Source: Phycisphaera mikurensis NBRC 102666 (GTDB taxonomy: Bacteria; Planctomycetota; Phycisphaerae; Phycisphaerales; Phycisphaeraceae). From it: 32,000 bases of DNA. Within the stretch, counting starts at the first letter, position 1, and each line of letters starts with the position of its first letter. Position numbers and translations under genes: made by a program. The notes beneath the pieces were generated by a model. That model did no database searches. It saw only the letters and a list, made by a program, of their open reading frames with translations, and was not told the DNA's origin. The stretch lies in contig NC_017080.1 of NCBI RefSeq assembly GCF_000284115.1, positions 1,410,001 through 1,442,000 on the forward strand, in the 5' to 3' direction. Positions 1,409 to 31,627 of the stretch are shown here, in pieces.

Positions 1409-1716
1409 TTGTCCCCGACGATTCCCATGGTTCGGGTGAGGCGGTGGTGGCTCGGCGATCCCCGCTGGCGCGGGGAGGGCTGCTCGCGGTCGCTGCCGTT
1501 TTCGGGGCGTCCGCGTGGTGGAAGGCCCTGCCGGGGGGCCTGCGTGAAGAAGCATCGGCACCGACGCTCTTCGAGAGCTTCGCTGCCTGGGCCGGGCAGG
1601 CGGCCTGGTGGGTGGTCGCCGCGGAGGCCGCTCTGGCGGTGTTCCTGTGCGTCGGCGCCTTCCAGCCCCGCCTGCGGCAGCCGTCCGTCGCGCGCGGCGC
1701 TGCCACGACTGGTTGA
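1405..1716 (+). CDS. small membrane protein with two predicted hydrophobic helices
   Basis: In frame with ORF 1324..1716. GTG at 1405 overlaps the upstream TGA (GTGA). Two hydrophobic stretches (GGLLAVAAVFGASAWW and AAWWVVAAEAALAVFLCVGAF). Third-position GC is consistent with coding. Confidence 0.4.
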   Translation: MIVPDDSHGSGEAVVARRSPLARGGLLAVAAVFGASAWWKALPGGLREEASAPTLFESFAAWAGQAAWWVVAAEAALAVFLCVGAFQPRLRQPSVARGAATTG

Positions 1717-1729
1717 GGAGTCTGGCGCC

Positions 1730-2378
1730 ATGAAGCTGTTCTCCGCCGCACGCGCGGCGTCGTCCTGCGCGGCGGTGTGCCGCGGGTGCGGCCCGCGGGC
1801 CGCGGAGCCCCCGGGTTCCGAAACGACGCCTCCGCCCGCCGCGGCGTCCCGGAGCGACGCACCGGGCCCGCGGCAGGACGACGACCCACCCCCGTGGGTC
1901 CGCTTCCACGACTTCCACGACGAACCGGGTTGGTCGGAGCGCCTCGGCGGCGGCGGATACCTCCCCGTGCCCGACCCCGCGGCCCCGGGCGGGGCGGTCT
2001 GCAACTGCCCCCGTTTCCCCGACGCCGAGGTCGCCAGTGACTTCCTCTCGGCCCGCTGGGCGTGGCTGCACGGCCGGTCCGGCCTCGTGGAGGCCGACCT
2101 CCGCGTTCCGGCCCGGTTCCTGCTTGCGGGCGACTGCACCCGGGCGGGCTCCTACGCGGCGCCGCTGGGGACGGCGCCCACCGGCTTCGACGACGTCGAC
2201 AAGGACGACGCGCGGGCGGAGAGCTGGCTGCCGGCCGCCCGCGGCGGGATCGACCCGCACGCGGGCGGGTTGGCGGGCGTCGCGGCCGAGGGGAACGCCG
2301 GCTTCGCGGCCCCCGATGCCGCGCCCAGATTCACCCTGCACCCCGCCGAAGGCCGCGTCGCGTGGTCGGGCCCTTTGA
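1730..2378 (+). pseudogene. lipoprotein-like ORF with no in-frame stop codon (frameshift, assembly indel, or disrupted gene)
   Basis: ATG at 1730 preceded by GAGGAG (1715-1720). N-terminus MKLFSAARAASSCAAVC resembles a signal peptide plus lipobox. High third-position GC and protein-like composition run to about 2370. The frame then stays open to 5221 (it is the 1409..5221 shadow ORF). An out-of-frame TGA sits at 2376-2378. Confidence 0.3.
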
Positions 2379-2456
2379 AAGAGCCGGCGCGCGGCCGGCC
2401 GCCACCGCGAGAGCGCCTTGGCGAATGCTTTCGGCGGGCGCGTAATCTCCGCGGTT

Positions 2457-5306
2457 ATGCCCGAGCCTTCCGCCAAAGACGTCCGCCAGCAGTTCCTCGA
2501 CTTCTTTGCGCAGAAGCACGGGCACAAGGTCGTGCCCTCGGCGCCGGTGGTGCCCCACGGCGACCCCACGCTGCTGTTCGCCAACGCGGGCATGAACCCC
2601 TTCAAGCCGTACTTCCTCGGCGAGGAGGTCGCGACCGACAAGCGGGTCTGCGACACCCAGAAGTGCATCCGCGCCGGCGGCAAACACAACGACCTCGAAG
2701 ACGTCGGACGCGACACGTACCACCACACCTTCTTCGAGATGCTCGGCAACTGGAGCTTCGGGGACTACTTCAAGAAGGAAGCGATCCGCTGGGCGTGGGA
2801 GCTGCTCGTCGACGTCTGGGGGCTGGAGCCCGAGCGCCTGCACGCGACGTACTTCGAGGGCGACGAGGCCGAGGGCCTGGAGCCGGACCTGGAGGCCCGC
2901 GATCTCTGGCTCCAGCTGCTCCCCGCGGAGCGTGTCCACCCCGGGAACAAAAAGGACAACTTCTGGGAGATGGGCGACACCGGCCCCTGCGGCCCGTGCT
3001 CGGAACTCCACTACGACGGCACGGCCGACCTCTCCGGCGCCGCCAAGGTCAACGCCGACGACCCCGACGTCATCGAGATCTGGAACCTGGTCTTCATCCA
3101 GTTCAACCGGAGCACGACCGGCAAGCTGGAGCCGCTGCCCGCGAAGCACGTCGACACGGGCATGGGCTTCGAGCGGATCGTCCGCGTGCTGCAGGGCCAC
3201 TCCAGCAACTACGACACCGACGTCTTCACGCCGCTGTTCGAGGCGATCCGGGAGGCCACCGGTGCCGGCCCGTACACGGGCGAGCTGGAGAAGCCCGAGG
3301 ACGTGGCCTACCGCGTCATCGCCGATCACATCCGCACGCTGGTCTTCGCGCTCGCCGACGGGGCCCACTGCGACAAGGACGGCCGTGGCTACGTGCTCCG
3401 CCGCATCCTCCGGAGGGCCGTCCGCTACGGCCGCCAGACGCTCGGGCAGGAGCAGCCTTTCTTCTTCGAGCTGGTGCCCGCCGTCGTCGCCAACTTCGGC
3501 GACGCCTTCCCGGAGCTGCGGGAGAGGGCCGACGCCGTGGCGGCGGAGATCCGCGAGGAGGAGGAGAGCTTCTCCAAGACGCTCGGCCGCGGGATCCAGC
3601 TGTTCGAGCTTTCCGCGCGGCGGGTCGAGGAGGCGGCGGGACGCGGCGGCGGGAAGACCATCGCCGCCACCGACGCCTTCCAGCTGCACGACACCTACGG
3701 CTTCCCGCTGGACCTCACCGAGCTGATGGCCGCCGAGCGCGGCATGACCGTGGACGCCGAGGGATTCGACCGACTCATGGGAGAAGCGCGTGTCCGAAGC
3801 CGCGGCGGGGGCGACGGCGGCGAGGCGGCGGCGATGGCGTCGCTGCGCGAGGAGGTGCAGCGCGGCTTCGACGCCGGCTGGTACGCCGGCACCAACTTCA
3901 CCGGCTTCGAGACGGCCGAAGCGCCCTTCCAGCAGAATCAGATCCACGTGTTCCGGCGCCAGGACGATCACTGGCTGTCGCTCACCGCCGGCGAGTCGGC
4001 CACCGCCGGCGACGCCGTCGCGATCGTCCTGAAGATGTCGCCCTTCTACGCCGAGATGGGCGGCCAGGTGGGCGACACCGGCTCGATCCAGCTGCGGACC
4101 GGCGGCCGCGTCGCCGTCCGCGACACGCAGAAGGTCGGCGCGGTCCACGTCCACCTCGGCGAGGTGGTCTCCGGCGAGGTCGCCACGGATCCCGACGTGA
4201 TCCTCGCGGTCGCGGTCGACCTGGAGCGACGCCGGGCGATCGAGGCGAACCACACCGCGACGCACCTCCTGAACCGCTCGCTGCGGGACCGCGTGTCCGA
4301 CGACGTGCAGCAGCGTGGCTCGCTGGTCGAGGCCGAGCGGCTGCGCTTCGACTTCAACCACGGCGCCGCCCTCGGCGACGACGAGCTGGCGGCGATCGAG
4401 GGCGACCTGGCCGCCGCCATCGCCGCCCGCCGCGGCGTCTTCAGCGGCAACGCGCCCGAGGCGCAGGCCCGCGGCATCCGCGGGCTCCGCGCCGTCTTCG
4501 GCGAGAAGTACCCGCCGGTCGTCCGGGTCGTCTCCGTGGGCGAGCCGGTCGACAAGCTGCTGGCCGACCCCGACAACGCGGCCTGGGAGGAACTCTCGGT
4601 CGAGCTCTGCGGCGGCACGCACGCCGGCAACACCGCCGACCTCGGAGCGTTCGCGCTGGTCGGCCAGGAGGCCGTCGGCAAGGGCGTCCGCCGCGTCACC
4701 GCCGTCACCGGCGAGCCCGCCGTCGCGGCCCGCGAGGAGGCGGCGCGGCTCATGAAGAAGCTCGACGCCGCCGCCGGCCTCGACCCCGAAGCCGTCGCCG
4801 CGCAGCTCGACGGGCTCACCAAGCGGGTCGAGGCGGCGACGCTCCCGCTCGCGGAGCGAGCCGCCACCCGTGCCAAGCTGGCAACCCTCGGCGAGGCCGT
4901 GCGGAAGCACCGCAAAGAAGCCGGTGCCCAGGCTACCGACGCCGTGCTCGACGCCGCCCGCGCCGCCGCCGAGGGCGTGGCCGACGGCGCCGTGCTCGTG
5001 ACCGGGATCGACGGCGCCGACGGCAAGTCGCTCCGCGTCGCGATGGACGTGGTCAACAAGCTGCGCCCGCAGAGCCCCGCGATGCTCGCCGCCACCGAGG
5101 ACGGCAAGGTTTCGCTGATCGCCAGCGTTCCGAAGGACAAGGTCCAGGCCGGCTGGAAAGCCGGCGAGTGGGTGAACGCCGCCGCCGCCGAGGTCGGCGG
5201 CAGAGGCGGCGGCAAGCCTGACCGCGCCCAGGCCGGCGGGAAGGACCCCGCCAAGCTGCCGGCGGCCCTCGACGCCGCTCGGGCCTGGACCGCGGACCGC
5301 GGATGA
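2457..5306 (+). CDS. alaS: alanine--tRNA ligase
   Basis: ORF 2418..5306. Conserved AlaRS N-terminus (DVRQQFLDFFAQKHGHKVVPSAPVVP, DPTLLFANAGMNPFK, FFEMLGNWSFGDYFK) and editing-domain HTATHLL motif. ATG at 2457 preferred over the upstream TTG at 2418. Confidence 0.95.
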   Translation: MPEPSAKDVRQQFLDFFAQKHGHKVVPSAPVVPHGDPTLLFANAGMNPFKPYFLGEEVATDKRVCDTQKCIRAGGKHNDLEDVGRDTYHHTFFEMLGNWSFGDYFKKEAIRWAWELLVDVWGLEPERLHATYFEGDEAEGLEPDLEARDLWLQLLPAERVHPGNKKDNFWEMGDTGPCGPCSELHYDGTADLSGAAKVNADDPDVIEIWNLVFIQFNRSTTGKLEPLPAKHVDTGMGFERIVRVLQGHSSNYDTDVFTPLFEAIREATGAGPYTGELEKPEDVAYRVIADHIRTLVFALADGAHCDKDGRGYVLRRILRRAVRYGRQTLGQEQPFFFELVPAVVANFGDAFPELRERADAVAAEIREEEESFSKTLGRGIQLFELSARRVEEAAGRGGGKTIAATDAFQLHDTYGFPLDLTELMAAERGMTVDAEGFDRLMGEARVRSRGGGDGGEAAAMASLREEVQRGFDAGWYAGTNFTGFETAEAPFQQNQIHVFRRQDDHWLSLTAGESATAGDAVAIVLKMSPFYAEMGGQVGDTGSIQLRTGGRVAVRDTQKVGAVHVHLGEVVSGEVATDPDVILAVAVDLERRRAIEANHTATHLLNRSLRDRVSDDVQQRGSLVEAERLRFDFNHGAALGDDELAAIEGDLAAAIAARRGVFSGNAPEAQARGIRGLRAVFGEKYPPVVRVVSVGEPVDKLLADPDNAAWEELSVELCGGTHAGNTADLGAFALVGQEAVGKGVRRVTAVTGEPAVAAREEAARLMKKLDAAAGLDPEAVAAQLDGLTKRVEAATLPLAERAATRAKLATLGEAVRKHRKEAGAQATDAVLDAARAAAEGVADGAVLVTGIDGADGKSLRVAMDVVNKLRPQSPAMLAATEDGKVSLIASVPKDKVQAGWKAGEWVNAAAAEVGGRGGGKPDRAQAGGKDPAKLPAALDAARAWTADRG

Positions 5307-6268: not shown

Positions 6269-7381
6269 ATGAGCGACGCGGCCCCCCCCGGCGACCCAGG
6301 CGAAGCAACGCGGGAGAAGCTCGCGCCGCTGCGGGACGAGATCGACGCGCTCGACGAGAAGATCGTCGGGCTGCTGAACGCGCGGGCGCGGGTGGTCGTG
6401 AAGGTCGGCGAGGTGAAGCGGGCGGGCGGCGAGGACGTGCCGATCTACGCACCCGACCGCGAGCAGGCGGTGCTGGAGAAGGTCCGCAAGCTCAACCACG
6501 GGCCGCTGCCGGACCGCTGCCTGGAGGCGGTTTGGCGTGAGCTGATGAGCGGATCCTTCGCGCTGGAGCGGCCGCTGCGGATCGGCTACCTCGGGCCGGC
6601 GGGGTCCTTTTCGCACCTGGCGGCGGTGAGCAAGTTCGGCCAGTCGGTCGAGTACGACGAGCTGTCGGACTTCCCGGCGATCTTCGACGCCGTCGCCCGC
6701 GGTCACGCCGACTACGGGCTGATCCCGATCGAGAACTCCACGCACGGCGGCGTCACCGCCTCGCTGGACTGCTTCCTGGAGTCCGGGGTGCCGGTCTGCG
6801 CCGAGATCCTCCTGCCCATCCACCACAACCTGCTCTCGCGGGTGCCGCTGGAGCGGATCAAGACCGTCTACTCGCACCCGCAGGTGCTCGGCCAGTGCCA
6901 GCGCTGGCTGACGGCGCAGCTCCCGCACGCGAAGCGGCTGGACGCGGCGAGCAGCTCGCAGGCGGCGCGGATCGTCGCCGAGAACCCCTCCGAGTCCGCC
7001 GCCATCGGCAGCACGCTCGCCTCGCAGCTCTACCGCCTGCCGGTGCTCTTCGACAACATCGAGGACAACCCCAACAACACCACGCGTTTCTCGATCATCG
7101 GCCGCCAGAGCCCCCGGCCCACCGGCGAGGACAAGACGGCGCTGGTCTTCACCACGGAGCACCGCGCCGGCGCGCTCACCGACGTGCTCAACGTCTTCCG
7201 CGACCACGGCCTGAACCTCACCCGCCTCGCCGAGCGGCCGAGCCAGCGAATGAACTGGGAGTACTACTTCTTCATCGACCTGCTCGGCCACGCGGAGGAG
7301 CCGGAGGTGAAGGCGGCGCTGGACGAGGCGCGGGGGCACTGCTTGCAGCTGAAGGTGCTGGGCTCGTTTCCGCGGGCGTGA
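6269..7381 (+). CDS. pheA: bifunctional chorismate mutase / prephenate dehydratase
   Basis: ORF 6269..7381. N-terminal chorismate mutase helix (LAPLRDEIDALDEKIVGLLNARA). Prephenate dehydratase core (RIGYLGPAGSFSHLAA, GLIPIENSTHGGV, TRFSIIG). C-terminal ACT-like region. Confidence 0.9.
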   Translation: MSDAAPPGDPGEATREKLAPLRDEIDALDEKIVGLLNARARVVVKVGEVKRAGGEDVPIYAPDREQAVLEKVRKLNHGPLPDRCLEAVWRELMSGSFALERPLRIGYLGPAGSFSHLAAVSKFGQSVEYDELSDFPAIFDAVARGHADYGLIPIENSTHGGVTASLDCFLESGVPVCAEILLPIHHNLLSRVPLERIKTVYSHPQVLGQCQRWLTAQLPHAKRLDAASSSQAARIVAENPSESAAIGSTLASQLYRLPVLFDNIEDNPNNTTRFSIIGRQSPRPTGEDKTALVFTTEHRAGALTDVLNVFRDHGLNLTRLAERPSQRMNWEYYFFIDLLGHAEEPEVKAALDEARGHCLQLKVLGSFPRA

Positions 7382-7403
7382 GGGCGGCGGCTGCGCCGCT
7401 CAA

Positions 7404-7603
7404 GAGAGGAAGCGAAGAAGCGAAGAAGCGAAGAAGCGAGGAAGTGAGCAAGCGAAGAAGCGAAGAAGAAAGGAAGTGAGGAAGTGAGGCAGCGCGTCGG
7501 CTGCGCCGACCTCCGCGACGGCTGCGGATGATCCCTCTCTGACTTCTTCGCTTCTCCGCTTCTTCGCTTCCCCCCTTGCCTCCCGCGCAGCGGGATGCCC
7601 CCC
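7404..7603. repeat. structured intergenic element: 10 tandem GAAGCGAA-type octamers, small hairpin, 4 reverse-complement octamers, conserved hairpin plus C-run module
   Basis: Octamer array 7409-7488 (gaagcgaa x3, gaagcgag, gaagtgag, caagcgaa, gaagcgaa, gaagaaag, gaagtgag x2). Hairpin GTCGGC-TGC-GCCGAC at 7496-7510. Complementary units 7541-7572. Module TTGCCTCCCGCGCAGCGGGATGCCCCCC at 7576-7603 abuts the minus-strand TAA at 7604-7606. Confidence 0.85.
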
Positions 7604-8653
7604 TTAAAACCCCCACCCCACCTGCAACTGAATCTGCCCGAACGCGTCCGCATCCTCCTGCCCCTTGAACTCGTGGGTGAGGAAGGTCTGGGCGTAGCCG
7701 ATCTCGGCGTTGAAGCGGTGGCCGGTGTAGCCGACGGCGAAGCCGCCGCGGAAGATGCCCAGCAGCGGCTCGCGGTCCACGGAGGGGGAGGGGTTGCGGG
7801 CGTAGCTGCCGTCGAGGAAAGTGTTCCACTGCACGTAGCGGGCGGCGGCGCCGGCGAAGGCGTAGACGCTCCAGCCCGGCTGCGGCCCGGCGCCGGTGAA
7901 GCTGCCGGGGTCGCGGACGCGGGCGGGGCCGAAGTCGTCGGGCAGCTTCCAGCCGACGCGGGCGATGCCGCCGAGGGTTGCGTCGCGGTGCGTGGTGCCC
8001 ACGCGGACCTCGCCGTAGGGCAGCAGCTGCGCGTTGAGGCCGCCGGGGCGGAGGCCGGGCAGCCCCAGGCCGGCGGCGTCGATCCGCACGGTCCGCCGGT
8101 AGGCGAGGTCGATGGCGAACTCGTCGCCGAGCTGGCTGTCCCAGCCGTTGGGGTCGTCGCCGGTGAAGTACTCGTGGATGTACTCCTGCACCTCCTTGGC
8201 CAGCGAGCTCTCGCCGACGACGCCGAGGTTCAGCTGCAGGTGGTCGAGGTGGTCGTCGTGCTCGCGCTGGCCGTAGAAGGCGCCGTAGAGGTAGCCGGCG
8301 TAGGGCCGGTCGTCGGGGTCGGGCACCCGCGCGGTGATGTCCTCGGGGGTGTAGATCTCGTGGGCGACCATCAGGCCGACGGCGGTGCCGTCCGCCGGCA
8401 GGCCCAGGCCGTCGACGAGACCGGCGAAGGTCTCGCTCTTGTGCGCCAGATCCAGCGCGGCGCCGTTGGTGTAGTGCCGGTCCTCCAGCTCGTTGAGCTT
8501 CACGAAGGAGCCGTCGTTCTCGAAGAGCACCTGGAAGCGGTACGCGGGGCCGGCGGCGGGAAGCTCCGCGGCGGGTCGATCTTCCTGCGCCGCCGCGAGC
8601 GGCGCCAGCGCGAGGAGCAGGCCGGCGAGGGATCGTCGGGAGGTGGGTGACAT
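7604..8653 (-). CDS. LpxR-family (DUF2219) outer-membrane protein, putative lipid A deacylase
   Basis: Within ORF 7604..8902. ATG at 8653 gives the signal peptide MSPTSRRSLAGLLLALAPLAAAQE. Family-typical motifs FENDGSF, DRHYTNG, HEIYTPEDI, DRPYAGYLYG. C-terminal aromatic residue (WGF). Confidence 0.75.
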   Translation of the reverse strand: MSPTSRRSLAGLLLALAPLAAAQEDRPAAELPAAGPAYRFQVLFENDGSFVKLNELEDRHYTNGAALDLAHKSETFAGLVDGLGLPADGTAVGLMVAHEIYTPEDITARVPDPDDRPYAGYLYGAFYGQREHDDHLDHLQLNLGVVGESSLAKEVQEYIHEYFTGDDPNGWDSQLGDEFAIDLAYRRTVRIDAAGLGLPGLRPGGLNAQLLPYGEVRVGTTHRDATLGGIARVGWKLPDDFGPARVRDPGSFTGAGPQPGWSVYAFAGAAARYVQWNTFLDGSYARNPSPSVDREPLLGIFRGGFAVGYTGHRFNAEIGYAQTFLTHEFKGQEDADAFGQIQLQVGWGF

Positions 8654-8741
8654 CGGTGCGTCTTTTTCGGGCCGGACGGGAGGAGGCTCCAGCCGACGGA
8701 GCGTACGGTCGGGGCCGCCGCACCACCGTGAGGAACCCGTG

Positions 8742-10772
8742 ATGACGCTCGACGCCGCCGACCGCCCGCTCCGCCTCGCCGCCGGGGTGCTCAACCAGAC
8801 CCCGCTGGATTTCGAGGGCAACGCCGCGCGGGTCCGCCGCGCCATCGACGACGCCCGCCGCCTGGGCGCGGCGTGGCTGTGCCTGCCGGAGCTGTGCCTC
8901 ACCGGCTACGGCTGCGAGGACGCCTTCCACGCCCCGTGGGTCTGGGAAGAGGCGACGCGGGTGCTGCTGGAGGAGGTCGCCCCGGCCAGCGCGGGCGTGC
9001 TCGTCGCGGTCGGATTGCCCGTGTTCCACCACGGCGCGCTGTACAACGCGGCGGCGGTCTGCTGCGACGGCGAGGTGGTCGGTCTGGTCGCCAAGCAGAA
9101 CCTCGCCGGCGACGGGCTGCACTACGAGCCGCGCTGGTTCAAGGCGTGGCCGGGCGGCCGCGCCGCGGAGCACGGGCTGCGTGGCGGAGACGGCGCGACG
9201 GTCCGCGTCCCGATGGGGGATCTGGTGTTCGTCGTCGACGGGGTGCGCCTCGGCTTTGAGATCTGCGAGGACGCGTGGGTCGCCGACCGCCCCGGCGGCC
9301 GCCTGGCCGGCCGCGGCGTCGACGTGATCTTCAATCCCTCCGCCAGCCACTTCGCCTTCGGCAAAGCCGACGTGCGCGAGGGCTTCGTCCGCAACGGGGC
9401 CCGGGCTTTCGGCGCCGCCTACGTCTACGCGAACCTGCTCGGCAACGAGGCGGGGCGGGCGATCTACGACGGCCACGCGCACATCGCCACGCCCGGGGCG
9501 CTGGTCGCCCGCGGCCCGCGGTTGATCTTCTCGGACGTCCACGTCACCGGCGCCGAGGTCGACGTGCAGACGCTGCGGGCGCACCGGGCGAGGCGCGTCG
9601 GCCACCGGCCCGACGTGGAAGGCGGGCCCAACGAGGTCGCCTGCTCCATTGCCGATCCGCCCGAGCCCGCCGCCGGCGTCCCGCCGCTCGCGACCGCGCA
9701 GGCGCCCTGGGTGAAGAAGGGCGACACGCACGTGAAGGAGGACGACTTCTGCCGGGCCGTCGCGCTGGGCCTCTTCGACTACGCCCGCAAGAGCCACAGC
9801 CGCGGCTTCGTGGTCAGCCTCTCGGGCGGGGCCGATTCCGCCGCCGTCGTCGCGCTCGTGGCCAAGGCCGTCGAGCTCGCCGGCAACGAGCTGGGACTGC
9901 CCGCGGTGGCGTCCGCGTGGGGGCTGGACCTGCCCGAGAACGCGACCCGGGAGGAGGTCGTCGCCGCCTCGCTGACGACGATCTACCAGGCCACGCGGAA
10001 CAGCGGCAACGCGACGAAGCACGCCGCGGAATCGCTCGCCGCCGGCATCGGCGCCACCCACCACCACGCCGACGTCGAGCCGCTGGTCGCGGGCTACACC
10101 GAGCGTGCCGAGGCCTGCTTCGGCCGGAAGCTCGCCTGGGAGACCGACGACGTCGCCCTGCAGAACATCCAGGCCCGGGTGCGGTCGCCGCTGGCGTGGA
10201 TGCTCGCCAACGTCGAGGGCAAGCTGCTGCTGTCCACCAGCAACCGCAGCGAGGCCGCCGTCGGCTACGCCACGATGGACGGCGACACCAGCGGCGGCCT
10301 GTGCCCGGTGGCCGGCATCGACAAGGCCTTCCTCCGCCACTGGCTCGGCTGGCTGGAGACCCACGGCCTCCACGGCGGCAGCCCGCTCCCGGAGCTGGCC
10401 GCGGTCAACGCGCTGCAGCCCACCGCGGAGCTGCGGCCGGCCGAGCAGGCCCAGACCGACGAGGGCGACCTGATGCCCTACCCGCTGCTGGACGTTTTCG
10501 AGGAGGCCGCCATCGGCCGCAAGCTCTCGCCCGCCCGCACGCTGGCCGAGGGCGTCAAGCGTTTCCCGCAGATCCCCGACGACCGCCTCCGCGTCTACCA
10601 CGCCCGCTTCTTCCGCCTGTTCGCCCGCAACCAGTGGAAGCGCGAGCGCTACGCCCCGGCCTTCCACGTGGACGACCGGAACCTGGACCCCAAGACCTGG
10701 TGCCGCTGGCCGATCCTCTCCGGCGGCTTCGAGCGGCAGCTGGCGCGGATCGCCGAGAACGGCTCCCGCTAG
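8742..10772 (+). CDS. nadE: glutamine-dependent NAD+ synthetase
   Basis: Within ORF 8493..10772, ATG at 8742 after GAGGA. N-terminal CN-hydrolase domain (CLPELCLTGYGCED, FEICEDAW). C-terminal NAD synthetase domain (SLSGGADSA P-loop, LSTSNRSE, GYATMDGD). Confidence 0.9.
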   Translation: MTLDAADRPLRLAAGVLNQTPLDFEGNAARVRRAIDDARRLGAAWLCLPELCLTGYGCEDAFHAPWVWEEATRVLLEEVAPASAGVLVAVGLPVFHHGALYNAAAVCCDGEVVGLVAKQNLAGDGLHYEPRWFKAWPGGRAAEHGLRGGDGATVRVPMGDLVFVVDGVRLGFEICEDAWVADRPGGRLAGRGVDVIFNPSASHFAFGKADVREGFVRNGARAFGAAYVYANLLGNEAGRAIYDGHAHIATPGALVARGPRLIFSDVHVTGAEVDVQTLRAHRARRVGHRPDVEGGPNEVACSIADPPEPAAGVPPLATAQAPWVKKGDTHVKEDDFCRAVALGLFDYARKSHSRGFVVSLSGGADSAAVVALVAKAVELAGNELGLPAVASAWGLDLPENATREEVVAASLTTIYQATRNSGNATKHAAESLAAGIGATHHHADVEPLVAGYTERAEACFGRKLAWETDDVALQNIQARVRSPLAWMLANVEGKLLLSTSNRSEAAVGYATMDGDTSGGLCPVAGIDKAFLRHWLGWLETHGLHGGSPLPELAAVNALQPTAELRPAEQAQTDEGDLMPYPLLDVFEEAAIGRKLSPARTLAEGVKRFPQIPDDRLRVYHARFFRLFARNQWKRERYAPAFHVDDRNLDPKTWCRWPILSGGFERQLARIAENGSR

Positions 10773-10805
10773 GTTCCGCCGCATGGCGACGCCGCCGCGC
10801 CGCGA

Positions 10806-22389: not shown

Positions 22390-22519
22390 AAGCCGCGGAT
22401 GTCACGGATGAAACGGATTCAGAGGAAACGCGTTGGCCGCAACGCTCGTTTCGTCGATGGGGGCGCGAAGGATCGTGGTACCTCTTTCTCATCCCTGCGA
22501 TCCGTGACATCCGCGGCTT
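22390..22519. repeat. 20-bp perfect inverted repeat with nested hairpin in the moxR-DUF58 spacer
   Basis: AAGCCGCGGATGTCACGGAT (22390-22409) is the exact reverse complement of ATCCGTGACATCCGCGGCTT (22500-22519). Each arm carries three CGGAT/ATCC units at 9-nt spacing. Inner imperfect stem AACGCGTTG..CAACGC(TC)GTT around 22427-22450. Confidence 0.85.
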
Positions 22520-22543
22520 CTCTTCTCTCGGCCCGGCGCCGCT

Positions 22544-26228: not shown

Positions 26229-26969
26229 TCACTCGGAGCGCAGCGCGGCGGCCCGCGCGAGGGCGGCGTGCTCGCGGGTGAGCCCGAGGGTGAGTCCGGG
26301 CAGGCGGAGCTCGCCGCCGCGGGAGCGTCCCAACGCCCGAGCGGCCTCCCGCGGCAGCAGGAAGACCAGCCGCTCGTCGAGCTTCGGCGGCCGGGCGGCG
26401 TTCTGCGTGCGGATGCGCGGGTCGCTGAGCGAGCGATCGCTCAGCAGCGTGTAGCCCTCCAGCGGCAGCACGAACGCCTCGCCGTCGACGACGAGCCCGG
26501 CCGTCTCGGCGCCGGCCAGCCGCGAGCTGCGGCTGCCGAGCGTCTCGAGCACGAGCACCAGCGGATCGACGGGGCGGTCCTCCGCGGCGAGCGCCTCCCC
26601 AGGGTGGGTGAAGCCGACGGCGACCGCGTAGCGGGAGAAGCCCAAGAGGGCGCCGGACGCGGCCGCGATCCGCGCGCTGAGCACCGTGGTGCGGCCCGAG
26701 GCCGGATCGAAGACGGAGCGGAAGCGGCCTTGCTCGCGATCGACCAGCTCGCCCTTGGCGGGCAGGCCGGCGAGAGCCTCGAGGCGGCGGTTCTCGGTGG
26801 CGAGGTCCTCGCGGAGCTCGGGCGAGGGCGCGGGCGGCGGCGTCGCCGAGGCCTCCAGCCGCTCGCGCAGCGCGGCGTTCTCGGCCCGCAGCGCGGCGAC
26901 CTCGGCGCGGTCGGAGGCGCAGCCGGCGAGCAGCAGCGGGGCGGCGAGGGCGGCGAGGAGCGGGCGCAT
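26229..26969 (-). CDS. hypothetical lipoprotein with N-terminal coiled-coil segment
   Basis: ORF 26229..26969. MRPLLAALAAPLLLAGC lipobox. No family recognised. Confidence 0.55.
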   Translation of the reverse strand: MRPLLAALAAPLLLAGCASDRAEVAALRAENAALRERLEASATPPPAPSPELREDLATENRRLEALAGLPAKGELVDREQGRFRSVFDPASGRTTVLSARIAAASGALLGFSRYAVAVGFTHPGEALAAEDRPVDPLVLVLETLGSRSSRLAGAETAGLVVDGEAFVLPLEGYTLLSDRSLSDPRIRTQNAARPPKLDERLVFLLPREAARALGRSRGGELRLPGLTLGLTREHAALARAAALRSE

Positions 26970-26988
26970 CGGCCCAGTGTGCCCTCGA

Positions 26989-27693
26989 TCAGCCGGGCGC
27001 GTGCTCCGCCTCGGTGAAGTGCCGCCACGCGTGCACGACCGCGTCGGCGACGGCGTCGACGCCCTCGCCCTTGCGGACGGCGGTCATCAGGAACGGCCCC
27101 TCGTCCCGCATCGTGGCCGCGTCGTCGCGCATCACCGCCAGGTCGGCGCCGACGGCGTCGGCGAGGTCGATCTTGTTGATGACGAGCAGGTCGCTCTGGG
27201 TGATGCCCGGCCCGCCCTTGCGGGGCACCTTGTCGCCGCCGGCGACGTCGATCACGTAGATCGTGAAGTCGGCCAGCTCGCGGCTGAAGTGCGCGGCGAG
27301 GTTGTCGCCGCCGGACTCGCACAGCAGCAGCTCGGGGTGGTGGCGCTTGGTCAGCGACTCGAGCGCGAGCAGGTTGGGCGTTACGTCCTCGCGGATCGCG
27401 GTGTGCGGGCAGCCGCCGGTCTCGACCGCGGCGATGCGGTCGTGCGGGAGGGCGTCGTGGCGGACCAGGAACTCGGCGTCTTCGCGGGTGAAGATGTCGT
27501 TGGTCACGACGGCGAGCGAGAGCTTCTCCCGCAGCTTCAGGCACAGCGCGAGCACGAGCGCCGTCTTCCCGGAGCCGACGGGCCCGCCGATGCCGACGGT
27601 GAAGGCGCGTCGGGCGGTGTCGCGGCCGACGAGCGCGGCCTCGCGGTGGGCGAAGTGGCCGGGGTCGTCGGCGTGGTCGGCGGACATGTGCAT
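26989..27693 (-). CDS. ureG: urease accessory GTPase UreG
   Basis: ORF 26989..27693. [10 protein letters not shown]-loop, ETGGCPH, ESGGDNL, INKIDL. Confidence 0.95.
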
Positions 27694-27887
27694 GGATCAA
27701 TCCTCAAGCGGGTGTCGCGGCGGCAGCGGGCCGAGCCGTTGTAGCCCACCCGCCGCGGAGGAGCGGAAGCCTTCGAAGCGCAAGAGCGTGGAACAAAAGA
27801 TGAACGCCCCCAAAACCACCCCAGCCCCCACCCACCCCGCCGCCCTCCACAACGCCCCCCCCCACCCGCCCGCCCCCCCAGACCCTC

Positions 27888-28008
27888 CGCTTCCTCGCTC
27901 CCCCACTTCCCCACTTCTCCACTTCTCCGCTTCTCCGCTTCTCCACTTCTTCGCTTCCTCACTTCTTCGCTTCTTCGCTTGCCTCCGCGCAGCGGATCCC
28001 CCCCCCTC
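27888..28008. repeat. 12 tandem CRCTTCYY octamers plus conserved hairpin and C-run module in the ureF-ureG spacer
   Basis: Units read in phase from 27888 to 27983 (cgcttcct, cgctcccc, cacttccc, cacttctc x2, cgcttctc x2, cacttctt, cgcttcct, cacttctt, cgcttctt, cgcttgcc). Module TTGCCTCCGCGCAGCGGATCCCCCCCCC at 27979-28006 lies 2 nt from the ureF stop (28009-28011). Confidence 0.85.
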
Positions 28009-31378: not shown

Positions 31379-31429
31379 GGCGCTACATGAGCCGCTCGCA
31401 CGGAAGCGCTCGGTGACCGCGCCTTTGAA

Positions 31430-31569
31430 CGAGCAGCGCTTCGCTTGAACACAGAGGGCACAGAGGCACAGAGGCACAGAGAGAGGCACAGGGCAAGGCG
31501 GAGAGAGTCCGCTCCCCCCTTGGGCCTCCGTGCCTCTTCTCCCTCCGTGTTTCAGAGAAGCGTTGCTCG
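31430..31569. repeat. structured intergenic element: CACAGAGG tandem units, hairpin plus C-run, reverse-complement arm, outer 13-bp stem
   Basis: Outer stem CGAGCAGCGCTTC (31430-31442) against GAAGCGTTGCTCG (31557-31569), 12 of 13 complementary. CACAGAGG-type units 31450-31493. GGCGGA-GAGAG-TCCGCT hairpin followed by CCCCCC (about 31497-31519). Pyrimidine arm CCTCCGTGCCTCTTCTCCCTCCGTG (31525-31549). Confidence 0.8.
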
Positions 31570-31627
31570 GGATCACACCGAGGTGCACACGCTTCTTGGG
31601 ATGATCTGAACTTCTGCCACCGGGTCC

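Follow-up and report, generated by a model that had tools for sequence, protein, structure and literature searches.

Repetitive extragenic palindromic (REP) elements between malE and malF protect the upstream mRNA. Long simple sequence repeats with units of 5–11 nt (LSSR; Mrazek et al. 2007, as summarised in PMC4679880) are of unknown function according to that summary, and the TAACTGA repeats are treated there as direct repeats. In Geobacter metallireducens, paired octamers have been reported as 'global regulator binding sites' of classes 1 and 2 (GTTGCTYN and TCTCCGTS, 21–24 pairs each), and their function was only guessed, with IHF/HU as the proposed proteins (PMC2700814). Termination signals in high-GC bacteria without U-tract terminators, Planctomycetota included, are poorly understood. 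Here we describe an octamer foldback, E1, that fills the 222-nt spacer between the convergent stops of pheA and lpxR (7382–7603) in a 32,000-nt stretch of Phycisphaera mikurensis NBRC 102666 (NC_017080.1, positions 1,410,001–1,442,000; the window hereafter, numbered from its first letter). Our results show that this species has a dispersed family of extragenic foldback repeats, to which E1 belongs. An earlier sequence-only reading had called the site far more elaborate than an ordinary terminator; membership in this family describes it better.

The limits of E1 can be read directly from the sequence. On the left it is bounded by the pheA stop (TGA, 7379–7381, + strand), whose position is unchanged in relatives, and on the right by the lpxR stop (TTA at 7604–7606, which is TAA on the − strand). 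Both gene calls are sound, pheA carrying CM_2, PDT and ACT domains and the LpxR family being confirmed by Pfam. The pheA stop is directly adjoined by a left terminal hairpin of 8 bp on the + strand (GGGCGGCG-GCUG-CGCCGCUC, core CGGCTGCGCCG, 7382–7401), which appears both in the minimum free energy (MFE) fold and in the alignment of half-elements. Next comes the purine-rich array (7402–7494, + strand) that makes the 5′ foldback arm, starting with a CAAG-AGAGG linker and continuing with octamers, for which Tandem Repeats Finder (TRF) gives period 8 and 11.6 copies. Ten of these octamers are contiguous at 7409–7488, in the order GAAGCGAA (three times), GAAGCGAG, GAAGTGAG, CAAGCGAA, GAAGCGAA, GAAGAAAG and GAAGTGAG (twice). 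The centre is a perfect 6-bp hairpin, GTCGGC-TGC-GCCGAC (7496–7510), the core of which, CGGCTGCGCCGACC, is also the centre of another family member, E0b. It is followed at 7512–7540 by a spacer with a weaker hairpin in the MFE fold (UCCGCG-ACGGC-UGCGGA, 7512–7528) and a CT-rich lead-in, CCCTCTCTGA. The complementary array of about four units (7541–7572) is the 3′ foldback arm on the + strand and, read on the − strand, a purine array downstream of the lpxR stop; it is documented by the inverted-repeat pairs I1–I9. The right terminal module (7576–7603, 28 nt, − strand) consists of TTGCCT, the hairpin CCCGC-GCA-GCGGG (7582–7594), ATG and C6. On the − strand it reads G6-CAT-CCCGC-TGC-GCGGG-AGGCAAG and adjoins the lpxR stop.

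Most of this anatomy had been recognised in the sequence-only reading. Its account was exact to the base, and the ten purine octamers, the perfect central hairpin and the hairpin with its C-run are all present as described. For the complementary array, the four octamers given were a fair estimate, TRF placing it at 7543–7570 with period 8 and 3.5 copies. The hairpin at 7382–7401 had been overlooked. It mirrors the module at the lpxR end and therefore makes E1 a large inverted repeat of two half-elements. Read on the sense strand of its own gene, each half runs from the stop codon through a small GC hairpin and a CAAG-type linker into a purine octamer array.

Repetition and folding are both far from random expectation. 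The 16-mer GAAGCGAAGAAGCGAA, with at most 3 mismatches allowed, has 20 matches against 0.28 expected, and a degenerate three-unit pattern has 11 matches against 0 in shuffles. The + strand of E1 folds at −108.3 kcal/mol (z = −3.6) and the − strand at −125.8 kcal/mol (z = −6.7), in both cases with a long stem between the purine and the pyrimidine arm. Transcripts of either gene would thus fold, as had been proposed.

The surroundings of E1 were examined over 51 kb, i.e. the window plus a 10-kb extension on each side, by TRF and by direct reading. Six elements were found, all intergenic and three of them within the window. E0 (outside the window) lies between a DUF3140 gene and pdxA, and E0b (outside) in the divergent spacer between a lactamase-like gene and a membrane-protein gene. 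In addition to E1 itself, E2 (27749–28006, − strand) lies in the spacer from ureF to ureG, E3 (31403–31597, + strand) in that from urtA to urtBC, and E4 (outside) in the one from urtBC to urtD. A solitary copy was the outcome that the sequence-only reading had named as speaking against its own proposal; further copies exist both in the window and nearby. In all six elements a purine-rich array precedes its complement and the two arms differ in length, and all six fold on both strands into a long purine-arm:pyrimidine-arm hairpin. The octamer varies from element to element (GAAGCGAA, GAAGYGRR, GAAGAGAG, GAAGAGAC, CACRGAGG), and the two arms within any one element always match. Of the 17 spacers that are 100 nt or longer, about 6 carry an octamer foldback.

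Comparison of the copies shows that the full element reads alike on either strand: the hairpin SSGC-TGC-GCSS, often after a G-run, is followed by a (G)GCAAG-type linker and the purine array. Further inside lie a GC hairpin at the centre, a CT-rich lead-in and the complementary pyrimidine array, which usually differs in length, and the mirrored module closes the element. According to the predicted folds, the arms pair into a stem of about 30–45 bp that tolerates many registers. The half-elements align in the order G-run, hairpin, (G)GCAAG and array. Most half-elements, though not all, share the (G)GCAAG linker and the hairpin core CSGCTGCGCSG, which occurs at six element positions within the 51 kb; the arrays differ. 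The 18-nt block (C)CGCTGCGCGG(G)AGGCAAG stands after both the lpxR and the ureF stop (2 matches, 0 expected). The pyrimidine arm is preceded by CT-rich lead-ins in E0 and E0b as well. Elements usually adjoin coding ends, for example the stops of pheA, lpxR and ureF and the starts of pdxA and the lactamase-like gene.

Individual copies fill in this scheme in their own way. On the − strand, E2 has, after the ureF stop, G9-AT-CCGC-TGC-GCGG-AGGCAAG and 12 GAAGYGRR units (27980–27885), and continues with a G-tract spacer and a short degenerate partner arm (27795–27759). The loop of E2 (27796–27884; − strand, mRNA sense) is a run of about 90 nt with the G-tracts G7, G3, G3, G9, G3, G4, G3, G5, G4 and G5; it is G-quadruplex-prone and sits between two cistrons of the urease accessory operon. 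In E3 two mirrored 40-nt hairpins enclose (CACAGAGG)n, a loop and (CCTCYGTG)n, in this order. E0b (contig L125, 5818–5978), about 3.9 kb upstream of the window start, begins 3 nt from a start codon and has (GAAGAGAC)5, a hairpin, an unbroken (CT)20 and the complementary arm. The gene adjoining E0b itself opens with (GCCTCCCCC)5, encoding ASP repeats.

Some other features of the region were observed in passing. At 22392–22543, between the same-strand moxR-like and DUF58 genes, there is a 152-nt near-perfect foldback of CGGATGAAA 9-mers, so that long intercistronic hairpins are not confined to octamer arrays. The gene downstream of E3 is a fused urtB/urtC of 998 aa (31643–34639) with a HEAT_2 match before the permease domains; among relatives it is fused in L254 and split in L253. 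Very long spurious open reading frames (ORFs) occur on non-coding frames and strands, e.g. 1409–5221 and 7272–10784, as is typical at about 70% GC.

It could be argued that E1 is a unique slippage or assembly artefact without generality, and short-read contigs do end within the array. In the Logan assembly of the same strain (SRR12223476), one contig ends and another starts inside the arrays, 50–58 nt past the pheA and ureF stops (L122 end, L124 start). The octamer-foldback elements fragment short-read assemblies. We regard an artefact as extremely improbable. The E1 sequence is identical in GCA_014207395.1 (contig JACHEL010000003.1), so the window agrees with deposited sequence; five further elements lie within 51 kb, a diverged orthologue is present in two metagenome contigs (L126 and L127) and the same architecture is found in other phyla.

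The evidence from other phyla comes from species-representative genomes that were scanned for runs of three GAAGYGRR units, with at least 120 loci in many phyla as the outcome. Among the matches listed, the units often drift along the array with the 8-nt period kept, and 10 of 124 arrays have a two-unit complement within 300 nt, downstream in all ten. When TRF arrays were paired by reverse-complement consensus, 17 period-8 foldbacks were obtained, two from P. mikurensis sequence and the remaining ones from Gemmatimonadota, Acidobacteriota, Burkholderiales, Myxococcales and a metagenome-assembled genome (MAG) of Phycisphaerae. The first arm is at least 75% purine in 17/17. In P. mikurensis and its relatives, too, each purine/pyrimidine-rich inverted repeat that was found is purine-first, and the heptamer foldbacks of Microcystis have no purine bias. 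It is important to note that a purine-first foldback is purine-first on both strands; the asymmetry is therefore genuine and does not depend on the chosen orientation. Ten folds from other phyla have the same design as E1, i.e. array, central hairpin and complement. Pfam-verified genes end 1–12 nt from the arrays in five loci (L094, L082 with PriA, L095, L058 with FtsX, and L028). Two of these five are verified convergent pairs; in L094 an amine oxidase gene faces a gene for an E1 dehydrogenase (here the enzyme). By a rough ORF heuristic and in small numbers, 7 of 13 other-phylum loci look convergent.

Two further array types were met among these genomes. In Microcystis (L029, L031, L043, L108) the heptamers, published as TAACTGA, also occur as foldback pairs (TCAGTTA ... 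ACTGATT) 40–200 nt apart. In Gemmatimonadales MAGs (L019, L037, L006), a conserved REP-like hairpin, GTCATYCCSGCGCAAGCSGGGA, stands at a fixed distance behind (GAAGCGGG)n arrays and forms with them another array-plus-hairpin module, in an unrelated phylum.

PheA homologues place the organism within Phycisphaerae, and its UrtA is 100% identical to a protein listed by NCBI under P. mikurensis. The history of the site can be followed in close relatives. In L130 and L131 (PheA identity 88%) the pheA–lpxR spacer is only 22 nt long, GGTTCCGCTCCGCGAAGCGGGC, with one small hairpin. In L126 and L127 (PheA identity 93 and 92%, respectively) the spacer is about 209 nt and has terminal hairpins and a diverged purine-first foldback; its arms are degenerate AGAGGGAA-like units, and CTGACTTC, with which the pyrimidine arm starts, can still be aligned with the window. 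The empty site in the former and the diverged foldback in the latter indicate that E1 was gained within the clade and then remodelled. The more distant L128 and L129 have lost synteny and are uninformative here. A coding extension of pheA or lpxR is ruled out, the stops being conserved. In the urt region, L252 and L253 (UrtA 90%) have long foldbacks in both spacers, with the stem base kept (CGCTTCGC...CACGGAG / CTCCGTG...GCGAAGCG) and different interiors. In the urtA–urtBC spacer of the lower-GC relative L254 (UrtA 87%), the urtA stop is immediately followed by a canonical 12-bp hairpin and ATTTT (3524–3551); a counterpart of E4 is missing there because urtBC overlaps with urtD. The same contig has a (TTGGGG)n-like array at its end (1–31), just downstream of ureF. 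The elements are thus polymorphic by insertion (22 nt in L130/L131 against 209–222 nt in L126/L127 and the window; E4 absent from L254), and the arrays are completely remodelled between species. Copies at different loci of the same genome are 68–75% identical, as compared to 49–55% for orthologous copies. After the gain in the P. mikurensis clade, slippage and the copying of one arm or one element from another would make the arrays turn over fast. Our results show in part that the octamer changes while both arms of an element stay complementary.

The maintained pairing was analysed in an alignment of five E3/E4-type sequences, which represent two loci, lie on three contigs and come from two or three related genomes. 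In this alignment 89% of cells are paired, and 17 of 58 pairs are changed on both sides, whereas shuffles give 9.0 ± 2.0 and none of 500 reaches 17. Controls with slid partners give only 2–4 two-sided changes.

Based on these results we infer that E1 is a U-tract-less bidirectional terminator or a 3′-end stabiliser, an explanation that we hold with even, no higher, confidence. The modular and dispersed family, the positions at coding ends, the kept complementarity, the purine-first order, the scarcity of U-tract terminators and the hairpin at the orthologous site of the lower-GC relative together suggest a local solution for ending or buffering both convergent transcripts. A polymerase coming from pheA or from lpxR would meet the purine arm, the central hairpin and the pyrimidine arm in that order. 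At closure of the long stem, the RNA still held in the polymerase would be U/C-rich. A hybrid of pyrimidine RNA with purine DNA is of the weak type, and it would let the element mimic the A-tract, GC-hairpin and U-tract of bidirectional intrinsic terminators in a form that suits a 70%-GC genome and has no U-tracts. In this way E1 would limit read-through into the opposing gene, and the stable 3′ hairpin would shield the upstream message from 3′ exonucleases. Between cistrons (urtA–urtBC, urtBC–urtD, ureF–ureG) the structure would attenuate transcription or stabilise the upstream segment, and the urtA–urtBC position may be a direct analogue of the malE–malF REP. A bidirectional terminator or stabiliser was also what the sequence-only reading had proposed. 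The 3′-end position, the polarity, the scarce canonical terminators and the hairpin with T-run in L254 fit that proposal, and its function stays a prediction.

As for canonical terminators, GC stem-loops are present just past the stops (7382–7401, 7496–7510, 7582–7594 and the long stem). A scan for canonical promoters and terminators gave none at E1, and its terminator-like matches across the window are at chance level. Several observations speak against termination or stabilisation by E1, and the first is that no terminator-like site, in which a stem is directly followed by a U/T-tract with 5 or more T in 8, was found in 7000–8000; no U-tract follows the stem of any element either. The supposed behaviour of the weak hybrid follows from U/C-rich RNA on a purine DNA template and is an expectation from textbook nucleic-acid thermodynamics. 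With Watson-Crick-only folds, 12 sense G·U-type and 13 antisense-type mismatches were counted, i.e. RNA-specific selection was not detected in this strand-asymmetry test, and the compensatory changes could come from DNA-level copying within quasi-palindromes. Sense folds are not consistently more stable than antisense folds across the elements. One of the six elements, E0b, lies in a divergent promoter region by a start codon, so the family is not strictly a 3′-end device. Relatives manage without the element, with the 22-nt spacer of L130/L131 and the urtBC/urtD overlap of L254. Finally, the other-phylum loci were chosen by the octamer pattern of this study and their genes called by a crude ORF method, so that the gene context across phyla is supporting evidence only.

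Some of the same observations would follow if the elements were selfish or neutral foldback DNA, MITE-like (miniature inverted-repeat transposable element) or self-propagating palindromes spread by transposition, slippage or template switching, with no host function and with the RNA hairpin as a by-product. We consider this a strong rival, though on the unlikely side. It accounts for the presence or absence of elements in close relatives, for terminal modules common to unrelated loci, for the closer likeness of copies within a genome than of orthologues, for wobble-type mismatches without strand bias and for the copy in a promoter region; repeats of any kind break short-read assemblies, and so do these arrays. 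Terminal inverted repeats, as in MITEs, are formed here by the mirrored modules and arms. On the other hand, neither a target-site duplication nor sharply conserved termini can be defined (none was recognisable between the empty site of L130 and the filled sites, with flanks too diverged for a firm judgement), and the octamer changes from copy to copy, unlike in copy-and-paste MITEs. An autonomous partner insertion sequence (IS) with the same ends was not found within the 51 kb. In the metagenome scan, an array stood next to 0/120 matches of the terminal module (16–18 nt), which marks these as chance matches. A neutral process also leaves the invariable purine-first polarity and the tight abutment on stop codons in several phyla unexplained. 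Function and selfishness are not exclusive, and a selfish origin with co-opted function, usual for REP-like elements, may apply here by analogy.

The strand-symmetric mismatches would also fit a role of the double-stranded DNA, with the arrays as cooperative sites for a nucleoid-associated or regulatory protein or as cruciform or triplex structural DNA. Paired opposed octamers at variable distance match the G. metallireducens description (PMC2700814), the CCTCCGTG/TTCTCCGTG arm seen in E3/E4 and in L253 is similar to the TCTCCGTS unit, and one copy is in a promoter region. Such binding arrays are nevertheless improbable. The octamers vary widely within one genome (GAAGCGAA, GAAGAGAC, CACRGAGG), which is hard to square with one sequence-specific protein; the arrays are of very unequal and unstable length, there is no known candidate protein, and it is the complementarity of the arms that is conserved rather than their sequence.

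Binding at the RNA level was considered in two forms: the purine array as a sponge for a CsrA-like protein or ribosomes, and surplus pyrimidine units as a Rho loading (rut) site, for which at least 60–80 nt of unstructured, C-rich and G-poor RNA ahead of the release site would be expected. The former leans on a few GGA/GAGG motifs in the purine arms. These lie within the predicted stem, not in loops, and nothing was found in favour of the protein or ribosome binding that the sequence-only reading had attached to GGA/AGGA motifs. For the latter, the C/U-rich pyrimidine arms contain a single G in every 8 nt, but they are predicted to be paired; the lpxR transcript would leave about 6 pyrimidine units (about 50 nt) unpaired. 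The + strand of E2 is C-rich and G-poor over more than 200 nt, but no + strand gene reads into it, the + strand ORF at 26686–27744 not being a gene and the real genes being on the − strand. Moreover, the arm in excess does not track gene direction, being the purine arm for pheA, ureF and the DUF3140 gene. Taken together, an RNA binding platform seems quite improbable.

Other known classes were compared with E1 as well. Rfam 15 gives no match at the gathering threshold, and sub-threshold hits are only to eukaryotic microRNA-precursor models, that is, generic long hairpins. A CRISPR array is ruled out, as the units are 8 nt and contiguous rather than 24–48-nt repeats with unique spacers between them. 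A small RNA gene and transposon-footprint arrays were dropped for want of supporting data.

The terminator or stabiliser reading of E1 can be extended to a cross-phylum class, covering Phycisphaerae, Gemmatimonadota, Acidobacteriota, Burkholderiales and Myxococcales, in which purine-first octamer foldbacks would be U-tract-less bidirectional terminators or 3′-end hairpins. Slippage-prone arrays would provide a register-tolerant stem, and the order of the arms would set the stem against a weak hybrid. We put this extension forward as a rather unlikely, tentative generalisation. The finding is wider than the sequence-only reading had it, being a family and possibly a cross-phylum design, and its function is less proven. 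If the foldbacks do end or stabilise transcripts, they would offer a recognisable signal for annotating genomes poor in U-tract terminators, as well as a function and a testable sequence rule for the 5–11-nt (including 7–8-nt) simple sequence repeats found in free-living bacteria. Even as purely selfish DNA they would be of practical importance: they take up a sizeable part of the longer spacers, disrupt short-read assemblies and alter intergenic regions from one close relative to the next.

In the literature searched, we found no account of this element, and none that joins foldback pairing of arrays, terminal hairpin modules and the purine-first rule. The nearest published look-alike is the set of G. 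metallireducens sites, multi-copy intergenic pairs of 3–4 tandem octamers on opposite strands at variable distance; compared by description only, they differ in having short arrays of fixed sequence and IS elements at a fixed distance. As an array, E1 belongs with the 5–11-nt LSSR as far as these are characterised in the summary cited above: TRF gives arrays of period 8 with 11.6, 12 and 3.9 copies in the window, and shuffles give 0. The LSSR and the TAACTGA heptamers of cyanobacteria and Beggiatoaceae are, according to the same summary, also intergenic 7–8-nt tandem arrays sporadic across phyla and common in large free-living bacterial genomes, with relatives that have shorter, repeat-free spacers. 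They are described there as direct repeats, and foldback pairing, terminal modules and a purine-first rule are not part of those descriptions.

MITEs such as Correia, ERIC and RUP resemble the P. mikurensis family in being non-coding, in their inverted ends, in presence or absence between relatives and in hairpins that affect neighbouring transcripts. The P. mikurensis family differs in that target-site duplication, fixed length and a full-length consensus were not found and the arms are microsatellites. REP elements and bacterial interspersed mosaic elements (BIMEs) are likewise abundant, species-specific imperfect palindromes, extragenic and homogenised within a genome, and with six dispersed extragenic copies in 51 kb our family behaves in the same way. 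They lie at gene 3′ ends and between the cistrons of ABC-transporter operons, here urtA–urtBC, and their RNA hairpins can stabilise mRNA or attenuate transcription. However, a REP unit is one palindrome of about 35 nt that has a GTAG head, is conserved in sequence and is tied to REP-associated tyrosine transposases (RAYTs), whereas the arms in P. mikurensis are variable-length 8-nt microsatellites whose sequence differs between copies. From the bidirectional intrinsic terminators (A-tract, GC hairpin, T-tract), E1 differs in having no U-tract, in flanking tracts that are 30–90-nt octamer arrays pairing with each other, and in that termination is predicted. It shares with them the location between convergent stops and, on both strands, a purine tract that comes first, a GC hairpin and a pyrimidine complement that comes after.

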